Below, piece by piece: positions 10,122-12,673 of a stretch of 64,000 nt of DNA. A program made the translations under genes and the position numbers. The first letter of the stretch is position 1. Every line of letters starts with the position of its first letter. Under the pieces are notes generated by a model. The model saw nothing but the letters and a program-made list of their open reading frames with translations, had not been told where the DNA came from and made no database searches. The stretch lies in NCBI RefSeq assembly GCF_016026235.1, contig NZ_CP065613.1. One strand, written 5' to 3'. Source of the DNA: Escherichia coli. GTDB taxonomy: Bacteria > Pseudomonadota > Gammaproteobacteria > Enterobacterales > Enterobacteriaceae.

Positions 10122-11123
10122 TTACAGGCTATCGATTAACAATTTGCCTTTGCGGAACATCATCAGACGCAGGAACACCACCATCAGCGCAGTTATGACT
10201 GCCCCCAGCGCGATCCCCGCCATATAGACGCCCAGGTTAGTGACCAGCGGCCATGCCCAGATAGCGGATTCCGGGAACCATTGCACTGCGCCCAGCCAGA
10301 CAGCGGCGGTTGAGCCGACAATCGCGCCGACCATATACGACGGAATGGCGGTGATGGGGCTTTCCAGCGCAAACGGAATCGCACCCTCACTAATCCCCAT
10401 AAAGGCAAGGAACATCGCGGTCTTACCCTGCGGATAAAGCTGAGCATTGAACAGGCGTTTGCCGGTTAAACGACGGTCGATAATGGTCGCCAGACCCAGA
10501 CCAATCGGCGGAATAACGATAGCGATAGAACGTGCGGTGACCGGTAATACGTGGTCAGTGGTAAAGCTGAAGGCAACAAAACCTGCGGCTTTGTTGATCG
10601 GGCCACCAAGGTCGATTGCTGTCGCCGCGGCGATCCCCATTGCGTACATCAGCGCGCCCTTCTCACCTGCAGCAGTCAGTACGGTACGGATACCGCCGTT
10701 GATCCAGCCGCCAAACGGGGTGATGACGTAGTACATCGCCAGCATGACAAAAATGGCGGAAAGAATCGGTAGCAAAAATGTGGTTTTGAACGCTAACAGG
10801 AAATCCGGTAACTGGATTTTCTGGTTCATCCATTTCACAAGGTAACCGGCAACGATAGAAATAATCAGCGCACCAATGAAGGTGGACGGCACCGGCGAAG
10901 AGGTCGCCCATTGCATAGTGCTGGGATCGAAGTTCAGCAGTTGCGTCGGCTGGGTAGACATCAAGCCGCCGATAAAACCAGCCGGGAACGCCAGTTTGCC
11001 ACCGATAGAGTTCGCCACAAAAGCAGCAAACATCGGAATGGCAAAACCAAACAACACGCCGCCGAAGGACTGCGACAGCCAGGCAAATTTCAGTAAGGAG
11101 AGGTCGAAACCGGAGAATTTCCC
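10122..11123 (-). pseudogene. fryC: PTS fructose-like EIIC, C-terminal portion (codons 83-415) cut off by IS insertion
   Basis: Frame continues from the IS junction through GKFSGFDLSLLKFAW... into the 311-aa ORF; joins in frame with the N-terminal fragment at 12416-12673 once IS and one TSD copy are removed. Confidence 0.85.
11112..11123. repeat. 12-bp target-site duplication GGAGAATTTCCC (low-coordinate copy)
   Basis: Identical 12-mer directly flanks both ends of the IS at 11124-12415. Confidence 0.85.
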
Positions 11124-12415
11124 TGAGGGATCCCCAGAAAATTTAGTAAACCATTATCATATTGGTATACCGTTGCTGTAGAACTTTCAGCCCTGCGTCA
11201 AGTGACAGTGTGTTTAGTATGAGTGGAGAATGTCGAATCACATTCTCCGCCAGTTTTAATAACGAGATGACTCGCCTGTGCTTCACTGTATTTGCCTGAT
11301 ATTTATGATGTATCCCTTTGTTTTCCAGGCTGAAACCGCTTAACCACATAATGATACTGGCTAATGTTGCGATCAGACTCAATACCGTGACCCGCCCGGA
11401 TGAATGACTGGCACCAAACCGTAGTCCAAATCCCCAGCGAGGATTTTTTTCATCCCTGAAATTTTGCTCAATTTGCATTCTACGGCTGTATAATTTCATT
11501 ACCTGTTTTGGCGAGAACTCAGTACTGTTTGTGAAAATAAACCATGGTGATTTCCCGGCAGTACGAGCTTTAGCCGTCACCGATGGTCTGGTTGCTCTTT
11601 CCTTCGAGCGTTTAAATCAACGACCTTTAGGCTTACTTTTATAAAGATAAAAATGCCCTTCATGTTGTGCATTTTTATCTCGACCCAGCAGGCCTTCACC
11701 TAAATAAATTGCTGTCGTTGATGCTTTTGTGCCTGAGTCCGACACCTTTTCCCAGCCATTACCAACATTGTAATAATGATTGCCCAGTACCCGGCAAATA
11801 TAGGTCCAGCCACGGGAGCGGAGCTGTTGGAACCATCGCCCCTGAAAACCGGCATCTGTAATAACAATGACATCAGTCCCGGGGGAAAAGCACTCAGCAA
11901 GCGATTCCAGAAAACGCTCATGTACATCTGCATTCGCTGTCTGTGATGATGGAACGACACAACTCATCAACGGTAAAGAACGCCCGTCACATGCCAGGCT
12001 TGCCCGCAAAAGCTGAAAACGAGAGGCATGATAAGCACTCCAGTCAATGAGTATCACAACACGAGACATTCCCCGCGTAATCTTTTGGGTAATTCGCTGA
12101 AAAATGGTGGAAACCTCATTTTGCAAATGTCGATTCCCCAACAGTCGATCCACCCGCTTTATTTTGTTTTTAACTGATGCCGTACCGGTTAAATGACGCC
12201 CGATACTGGTAAGTGTGAGGGAAGCGCCATTTATTACAGCATTAGTTGCGTCAATCAGTGATTTTTGACGGTAAAGATGCAAAGGGGCCAGTATGTTGTT
12301 AAGGAAATTTTGGCATAATGAACGTGCAGGCATAGTGGTGATCTCCTTGAAATTGTTAGCACAATCAATTAGATCACATCTCACTATGCCTGTCTTGTTT
12401 TCTGGGGATTCCTCA
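11124..12415 (-). mobile_element. IS4-family (IS10-like) insertion sequence, 1292 bp, copy 1
   Basis: Terminal inverted repeats TGAGG(A/G)ATCCCCAGAAAA; 12-bp TSD; transposase related by eye to IS10 (DDE and YREK-type motifs DAGF, YSRRMQIE); identical to copy 2. Exact IS name not resolved: 1292 bp does not match what I recall for IS186. Confidence 0.85.
11143..12333 (-). pseudogene. IS4-family transposase; frame interrupted by in-frame TGA (238 aa + stop + 157 aa)
   Basis: ORFs 11617-12333 and 11143-11580 are in the same frame separated by a single TGA; AAGGAG RBS before the ATG. Confidence 0.75.
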
Positions 12416-12427
12416 GGAGAATTTCCC
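12416..12427. repeat. 12-bp target-site duplication GGAGAATTTCCC (high-coordinate copy)
   Basis: Matches 11112-11123. Confidence 0.85.
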
Positions 12428-12673
12428 GCTATTAAGAGCATCCATGATGCCGATCTCAGCAGGAATTTTAAGCCAGCTATAAGCAATCAGCTGGCTGAAA
12501 GCGAGGATCACACCGCCCATAATTAAGGTTGGCACCATGCGTGAAATCCCTGACATCACATGCTGCGGGAGTTCACCCCAGAAGCTGCTTTTAGAGGCCT
12601 GCGGATTCTTAACTGCCGCTGCCGCACCGGATGCGCCAGGCACAACGGTTGCACTGCGTTTTTTAATGGCCAT
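12416..12673 (-). pseudogene. fryC: PTS fructose-like EIIC, N-terminal 86 codons
   Basis: MAIKKRSATVVPGASG...IMDALNSGKFS then a stop just inside the IS end. Confidence 0.85.

Follow-up and report, generated by a model that had tools for sequence, protein, structure and literature searches.

An ISEc60 element splits the PTS permease gene fryC in an Escherichia coli ypd/fry cluster

The ypd/fry cluster and the split fryC gene

The stretch of Escherichia coli DNA analysed here (64,000 nucleotides, hereafter the window) carries the ypdABC-fry-ypdEF cluster. An earlier note, made from the sequence alone, had described this cluster as intact except for fryC. As a matter of fact, ypdA, ypdB, ypdC, fryA, ypdE, ypdF and fryB were all full length and had no internal stop codon. 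We know of no established substrate for the cryptic fructose-like PTS operon to which fryC belongs, and a literature search on fryC, fryB and ypdF returned mostly unrelated papers and no mechanistic one. The intact genes are located as follows.

2146-3843, plus strand: ypdA
3858-4592, plus strand: ypdB
4605-5462, plus strand: ypdC
5465-7960, minus strand: fryA, downstream of the insertion
7985-9022, minus strand: ypdE, downstream of the insertion
9022-10107, minus strand: ypdF, downstream of the insertion
12695-13021, minus strand: fryB, 108 aa, first gene of the operon

The genes ypdF, ypdE and fryA (5465-10107) are closely packed, and the 14-24-nt gaps and gene overlaps suggest a fryB-fryC-ypdF-ypdE-fryA operon. 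The transposase frame found within fryC (from 12333 to 11143) lies on the minus strand, as do fryC, ypdF, ypdE and fryA, so that the earlier note was right in stating that the transposase reads in the direction of the downstream operon genes. The interrupted gene consists of the following parts.

10122-11122, minus strand: fryC 3' fragment, from about codon 87 to the stop codon, detached from its own start codon; 100% protein identity after excision
11112-11123: left 12-mer GGAGAATTTCCC, an exact direct repeat, of which the inner 10 bp, GAGAATTTCC (11113-11122), are the probable true duplication
11123-12416, minus strand: ISEc60 copy 1, 1294 bp with ends CTGAGG...CCTCAG; 1292 bp (11124-12415) as first delimited
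12416-12427: right 12-mer, an exact direct repeat; probable 10-bp duplication at 12417-12426
12417-12673, minus strand: fryC 5' fragment, 86 codons, terminated by a TGA of the IS terminus (12413-12415)

In the window, an exact direct repeat of GGAGAATTTCCC (11112-11123 and 12416-12427) brackets the element in fryC, as the earlier note had described. Within these repeats, the 1292-bp element is bounded by the inverted repeats TGAGGGATCCCCAGAAAA (11124-11141) and TGAGGAATCCCCAGAAAA (12398-12415, minus strand). This inverted-repeat pattern occurred four times in the window, as against 0.01 expected from shuffles, and two of the four occurrences bound a second copy of the element. Removing 11124-12415 together with one 12-mer in silico, as had been done for the earlier note, again gave a single EIIC frame of 1248 nt, that is, 415 codons plus a stop, with the same junction between ...IMDALNSGKFS and GFDLSLLKFAW.... 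The product was identical at 415 of 415 residues to FryC of E. coli ECONIH5 (WP_000985336.1), and the nucleotide sequences differed by four synonymous changes. The two fragments were thus colinear with one intact homologue, and the idea of an exact split by an IS held. Since the 5' fragment closes on the TGA of the IS terminus, the insertion adds no foreign residue to it. The orthologue of the 3' stretch in strain FDAARGOS_943 is labelled in RefSeq as a 323-aa 'PTS fructose transporter subunit IIC'.

Taken as a whole, the split fryC gene is, in our judgement, very probably explained by a cut-and-paste insertion of ISEc60, a DDE transposon of the IS4 family and the IS10 subgroup. Staggered cleavage of the fryC target would have produced the flanking duplication, and FryC, severed after residue 86, would leave an inactive EIIC permease. 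The analysis turned up nothing that contradicts the insertion itself. The empty site, which the earlier note had suggested looking for in relatives, was readily found by sequence search, about 5,417 of 5,426 complete E. coli genomes carrying the fryC site. The same note had called the insertion clean and recent. The flanks are indeed undecayed, but the insertion is common to at least three assemblies and must be older than their divergence, which makes it recent in a relative sense only; since that split, the 6.6 kb next to it have been inverted in one of these assemblies.

The element is ISEc60, an IS4-family member related to IS10

Copy 1 was identical to named ISEc60 copies in RefSeq at 1291 of 1292 nucleotides (99.9%, full length). 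These reference copies are annotated by NCBI PGAP as 'IS4-like element ISEc60 family transposase' (WP_001111632.1, 396 aa), and the window copy has the same inverted repeats, target preference and duplication length. The sole difference from the ISEc60 consensus is one base, T to A at window position 11619, which changes AGA (Arg239) into TGA. Judged by its sequence, the element in fryC is therefore ISEc60, an already catalogued family, and the window copy is a defective member and not a separate family.

The consensus transposase scored 360 bits on the IS4-family model NCBIfam NF033591 (cut-off 152) and matched Pfam DDE_Tnp_1 with E = 2.8e-20. It contains D97, D160 and E289 together with the Y-(2)-R-(3)-E-(6)-K signature YSRRMQIEQNFRDEK at 282-296 (Y282-R285-E289-K296). 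The terminal inverted repeats of 18-19 nt with one mismatch, plus the exact flanking repeat, are also traits of the IS4 family, and the element is expected to work as the other members do. A phmmer sequence search of the PDB with the ISEc60 transposase found no relative, Tn5 transposase being too distant for phmmer, so that the suggestion of a hairpin-intermediate chemistry comes from family membership.

The earlier note had called the element IS10-like. This was correct at the subgroup level, as IS10/IS10A belongs to the same IS4 family and likewise has one transposase gene, with a product of about 400 aa that carries the DDE and YREK motifs. The ends of IS10A and ISEc60 both begin CTGA-GAATCCCC or CTGA-GGATCCCC, the IS10A end CTGAAGGATCCCC being arranged like the end of ISEc60 at the transposase 3' side, and in both elements the end near the transposase start lacks GATC, which the other end has.

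11123-11141, plus strand: terminal inverted repeat at the transposase 3' end, CTGAGGGATCCCCAGAAAA, containing a GATC (Dam) site at 11128-11131
12398-12416, minus strand: terminal inverted repeat at the transposase 5' end, CTGAGGAATCCCCAGAAAA, without GATC

Dam sites are present in ISEc60 as in IS10, that is, at the candidate transposase promoter and in the inner end, and their role in ISEc60 is putative. As an identification, however, IS10 fails on sequence identity and duplication length: the transposase was 36% identical to those of IS10A and ISVsa5 (over 93% of its length), and the duplication measures 10 bp (12 on the first count) where IS10 has 9 bp. The elements also differ in length, 1292-1294 bp for ISEc60 and 1328 bp for the IS10A copy read here, and in target, a G-run, AT and C-run for ISEc60 as against the IS10 consensus NGCTNAGCN known from the literature.

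The closest named relative found was ISSfl1 of Shigella flexneri, with 52% protein identity. At the transposase-proximal end, the two elements agree in each of the first 20 nt, and both form the same 5' hairpin, with compensatory changes. The one ISSfl1 copy examined was 1301 bp long and had unambiguous CTGAGG...CCTCAG termini and a 9-bp duplication. As for targets, the IS4-family elements IS186 and IS231 prefer symmetric G-rich/N/C-rich sequences and make duplications of 10-12 bp. The targets of ISEc60 look like those described for these two elements in the literature.

ISEc60 is uncommon: among the 5,426 complete E. coli genomes, 14 contain it in full length. Large plasmids of E. coli, Shigella dysenteriae and Escherichia albertii carry it as well. 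Literature searches returned only resistome surveys merely listing ISEc60, and only surveys for ISSfl1, with no mechanistic paper on either.

ISEc60 ends, target duplication and the fryC hot spot

About 25 ISEc60 insertion sites were read for ends, duplication and target preference. At all of them, a C precedes TGAGG and a G follows CCTCA. If this outer C and G are counted as target, intact sites show a 12-bp flanking repeat, as in GGAGAATTTCCC, GGGGATAATTCC, GGGGATAACCTC, GGGGGAAACCCC, GGAGATTACGCC, GGGTAAATCCCC, GGTGACCTCCCC, GGCGAGTTCCCC, GGCTTTGACCCC, GGGGATCACTCC and GGGGAATTCTCC. About 20 intact sites accordingly had a duplication of 10 bp (12 if the outer bases are included), and one plasmid site had one of 11 bp (13 on the same count). 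At two sites the 12-mers were mismatched, precisely at the outermost base: between iprA and ampH (GGGGATAACCAC versus GGGGATAACCAA) and in motA (AGGAAAGTCCCC versus GGGAAAGTCCCC). Because of these two sites, and of the homology to the ends of ISSfl1 and IS10A, the true ISEc60 is most likely 1294 bp long (11123-12416), with CTGAGG...CCTCAG ends and a 10-bp duplication, GAGAATTTCC in fryC. The earlier note had given 1292 bp and a 12-bp duplication; the 12-mer repeat is exact, but these limits are probably not the true ones. The excision arithmetic and the restored fryC are identical under both readings.

The target preference was strong over the sites read: a run of G, then about four bases rich in A/T, then a run of C. 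The fryC site GGAGAATTTCCC conforms to it. Among the 5,426 complete E. coli genomes, the IS/fryC junctions of the window were found only in FDAARGOS_943. In strain VL46, ISEc60 occupies the same fryC position, again flanked by GGAGAATTTCCC, but it points the other way and is a tandem pair with the spacer GGGGATTTACCC. The VL46 insertion must be an independent event, and on this comparison the fryC site is a recurrent ISEc60 hot spot. In assembly GCA_031665585.1, the same dimer with the same spacer lies at another site (outer repeat GGGGATTTTCCC), so that its two elements have probably been transposed together.

The transposase frame is interrupted

11143-12333, minus strand: transposase frame, 396 codons, with TGA at codon 239 (11617-11619)
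19054-20347, plus strand (19055-20346 by the 1292-bp limits): ISEc60 copy 2, with its own duplication GGGGATAATTCC

The window contains a second copy of ISEc60, base-for-base identical to the first, nonsense codon included (TGA at 19851-19853), and the intact 396-aa transposase is absent from both. The earlier note had overlooked the stop codon as well as the second copy. D97 and D160 precede the stop, and E289 lies beyond it with the whole Y282-R285-E289-K296 motif. Since E289 is lost, the 238-residue product would be inactive and the window copy could not supply active transposase; such a defective copy could move only with transposase from another copy. The product retains the N-terminal part of the enzyme and two of its three catalytic residues.

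The exact truncated product is on record at five places, all in assembly GCA_900449985.1 (record UGFA01000002.1), two of which (L020 and L021) fall inside the window. No identical element with the nonsense allele was found in the 5,426 E. coli genomes or in PLSDB. Three of the five copies have orthologues in FDAARGOS_943 and/or GCA_031665325.1, and all of these orthologues have T and an intact frame. For the fryC and nupC-pdeA copies this was seen in both genomes, and for a recombinant copy, whose flanks are mismatched, in GCA_031665325.1. The remaining two copies, in motA and beside an autotransporter gene, have no orthologue in FDAARGOS_943. This indicated that several orthologous copies changed together in one lineage. 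Copying in trans as the sole source of the nonsense allele was set aside, as the orthologous copies in the sister genomes are intact.

Two candidate explanations are then left for the shared allele, gene conversion among the copies or an artefact of the assembly consensus. If the nonsense codon were such an artefact, the copy in fryC would really be an intact, autonomous ISEc60. The restriction of the A allele to GCA_900449985.1, at all five recorded places, fits with this possibility, as do the three copies with intact-T orthologues in sister genomes and the lack of any identical copy in the 5,426 genomes or PLSDB. Yet the same substitution appears in five copies that were assembled separately and whose flanks are unique, which is atypical of a long-read consensus error. 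One of the five (L018) moreover has an extra, private difference, which argues mildly against simple pasting from one consensus. Gene conversion is also plausible, since an inversion (see below) documents recombination between these copies. We consider an artefact possible but rather unlikely.

A predicted hairpin and a candidate antisense RNA cover the transposase start

12327-12392, minus strand: stable hairpin, predicted by folding, in which the region of the transposase start codon (CACTATGCCTG) pairs with an arm upstream of it
12326-12396, plus strand: candidate RNA-OUT-type antisense RNA, placed downstream of an extended -10

The predicted hairpin had a folding energy of -32 to -35 kcal/mol and a z of about -6 on either strand, and its downstream arm holds the transposase ATG (CACT-ATG-CCTG). 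Two diverged relatives of ISEc60 have kept it, as has ISSfl1, with two compensatory pairs. The 5' region of IS10A was misaligned in the joint alignment; IS10A was thus folded separately and showed an analogous hairpin over its own start codon.

A search of the element region against Rfam gave sub-threshold matches only. One of them was a full-length match to RNA-OUT (RF00240) at 12326-12396, with 16.8 bits as compared with a gathering score of 41 and E = 8.2; its score is below threshold, and its strand and place are those expected of an RNA-OUT covering the transposase start. Reading the plus strand by eye, we noticed a candidate extended -10, TGgCATAAT, at 12311-12319. It would start an RNA at about 12326, exactly where the sub-threshold match begins, which makes this RNA a candidate. 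Also by eye, a candidate transposase promoter, AAGACA-17-TCTAAT, was read with a GATC overlapping its -10, and GATC overlaps the ribosome-binding site upstream of the transposase ATG as well. Transcripts from this promoter would start near 12361, within the hairpin loop, and leave the start codon free. Transcripts entering from fryB would carry both arms of the hairpin, and the start codon would be hidden.

The layout of IS10 combines RNA-IN, RNA-OUT, fold-back inhibition and Dam control. The long hairpin of ISEc60 sits where IS10 has RNA-IN, RNA-OUT and fold-back inhibition, and we infer from this analogy that the 5' layout of ISEc60 resembles the IS10 arrangement, Dam sites included.

ypdF, ypdE and fryA are probably silenced by polarity

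Because of the hairpin over the start codon and the premature stop, we favour polarity as the effect of the insertion on the downstream genes. Read-through transcripts would contain about 1.3 kb of IS and the 1.0-kb fryC 3' fragment, largely or wholly untranslated. Transposase translation, if any, would end at codon 239 and leave about 1.5 kb untranslated before ypdF. Long untranslated stretches are known to lead to Rho-dependent termination and to polarity on downstream genes. From the sequence features, ypdF, ypdE and fryA would thus probably be silenced by polarity rather than activated by read-through.

The earlier note had considered that the element might instead drive these genes by read-through. 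Expression of ypdF, ypdE and fryA from an intact IS10-like element, by transcripts of its own or by read-through, would be in keeping with the co-directionality of the transposase and the operon, and IS10 is known to activate neighbouring genes through its promoter pOUT. The only outward promoter-like site at the downstream end is TCTACA-18-GATAAT (11182-11153, minus strand, 9/12), which faces out of the IS toward the fryC 3' fragment and ypdF and is a weak match. However, the scan for promoters and terminators showed no enrichment over shuffles (9 promoter-like sites, with 4.3 +/- 2.1 expected), and we retained no convincing outward promoter at this end. By analogy with IS10, the outward promoter would lie at the transposase 5' end and face fryB in antisense, that is, away from ypdF. 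Besides, the transposase frame is interrupted and its start codon would be occluded by the hairpin on external transcripts. Activation by read-through, left unsupported by these data, appears improbable to us, and silencing by polarity is the reading that we retain.

Two inverted ISEc60 copies and a 6.6-kb inversion

Copy 2 lies 6.6 kb away from copy 1, in the inverted orientation, and interrupts the nupC terminator hairpin in its loop. The same two insertions, in fryC and in nupC-pdeA, are annotated in the RefSeq genome of FDAARGOS_943. There, in contrast to the window, the intervening 6.6-kb segment is inverted; it contains the fryC 5' fragment, fryB, glk, yfeO, ypeC, mntH and nupC. The flanking repeats are swapped in FDAARGOS_943, one copy being flanked by GGAGAATTTCCC...GGAATTATCCCC and the other by GGGAAATTCTCC...GGGGATAATTCC. 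This is the exact prediction of reciprocal recombination between inverted copies. The two identical copies would have been the substrate of homologous recombination and flipped the segment from fryC 5' to nupC in the sister strain. The non-inverted arrangement was also found in GCA_031665325.1. In the window, the repeats match at each copy and the gene order is the ancestral one, as in ECONIH5, indicating that the window represents the original state after insertion.

As to the nonsense allele, one might imagine that the Arg239-stop change is real, that it was gene-converted to all five recorded copies and that its 238-residue product could inhibit the full-length enzyme. If this were true, the truncated product might keep in check the IS expansion that brought FDAARGOS_943, the sister strain, to about 38 copies. 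We regard this scenario as very doubtful.

A joint arrival of both copies with the 6.6 kb between them, in the form of a composite transposon like Tn10, as two identical inverted copies flanking a gene block might suggest, has next to no chance of being correct and is refuted by the target duplications, which differ between the copies, and by the intervening genes, which are in ancestral E. coli order and position as in ECONIH5. The distinct duplications and the ancestral gene order point instead to two independent insertions into a resident segment.

Significance

The fryC disruption is real but is an ordinary gene-disrupting IS insertion, and IS elements routinely disrupt such genes in the IS-rich lineages of E. 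coli and in Shigella-like ones. The kind of finding is already known, as the IS is catalogued and the same insertion is annotated in FDAARGOS_943. The odd feature that remains is the assembly-specific nonsense allele common to five ISEc60 copies.

The split gene in itself matters little beyond bookkeeping, and the useful by-products concern ISEc60. They include a well-supported target consensus with a corrected definition of the ends and of the duplication, a recurrent hot spot in fryC, and tandem IS dimers that probably transpose as units. Eventually, the IS-mediated 6.6-kb inversion, which differs between sister genomes, serves as a warning for synteny comparisons around glk, mntH and nupC.

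Inversion between two ISEc60 copies

We compared the window with the sister genome FDAARGOS_943, which carries the same ISEc60 insertions in fryC and between nupC and pdeA. Besides the fryC copy (11123-12416, minus strand), the window contains these insertion elements:

19054-20347: second ISEc60 copy, flanks 19030-19053 and 20348-20370; inverted relative to the fryC copy and identical in sequence
~27144-27910: IS1 (InsA and InsB frames), in place of xapA, xapB and a small DUF1427 gene of FDAARGOS_943
~39416-40841: IS4-type element with a ~445-codon transposase frame, between crr and pdxK

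The 6.6 kb lying between both ISEc60 copies (12416-19054, glk to nupC) was inverted in FDAARGOS_943 relative to the window, and the target duplications of the two copies were swapped. This shows that homologous recombination between the two elements flipped the segment. The second copy sits in the loop of the bidirectional nupC terminator hairpin, AAAAAAGCCGGGGA-TAAT-TCCCCGGTTTTTTT, and thus should abolish this terminator.

The two genomes also differed elsewhere. The difference at xapA/xapB looks like a deletion of ~2.3 kb associated with IS1. The IS4-type element between crr and pdxK was absent from FDAARGOS_943, and pdxK (40862-41713) was whole in the window, whereas in FDAARGOS_943 it was broken by ISEc60, ISSso6 and an IS66 element.

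Tandem dimers and target choice

Tandem ISEc60 dimers with a 12-bp spacer between copies were found in E. coli VL46 (locus L005, 4621-7216), GCA_031665585.1 (loci L023/L024) and pCFSAN029787_01. The VL46 dimer occupied the same fryC target as the window copy, in the opposite orientation. Because its spacer, GGGGATTTACCC, was identical in a dimer at another locus, the dimer probably transposed as one unit. In addition, the palindromic plasmid site GGCGGGGAAAATCCCCGCC was struck in both orientations in two species (plasmids of E. coli, L007, and E. albertii, L009), a further sign of strong target specificity.

A nonsense transposase allele

The Arg239-to-TGA allele (window 11619 and 19851) was found at all five recorded places (loci L017-L021), only in GCA_900449985.1; orthologous ISEc60 copies in two sister assemblies carried the intact allele. 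Gene conversion and a consensus artefact are candidate explanations for this distribution. One of these five copies (L017), outside the window, interrupted motA, adjoining flhDC, pointing to a background that is non-motile and rich in IS elements, of EIEC or Shigella-like type.
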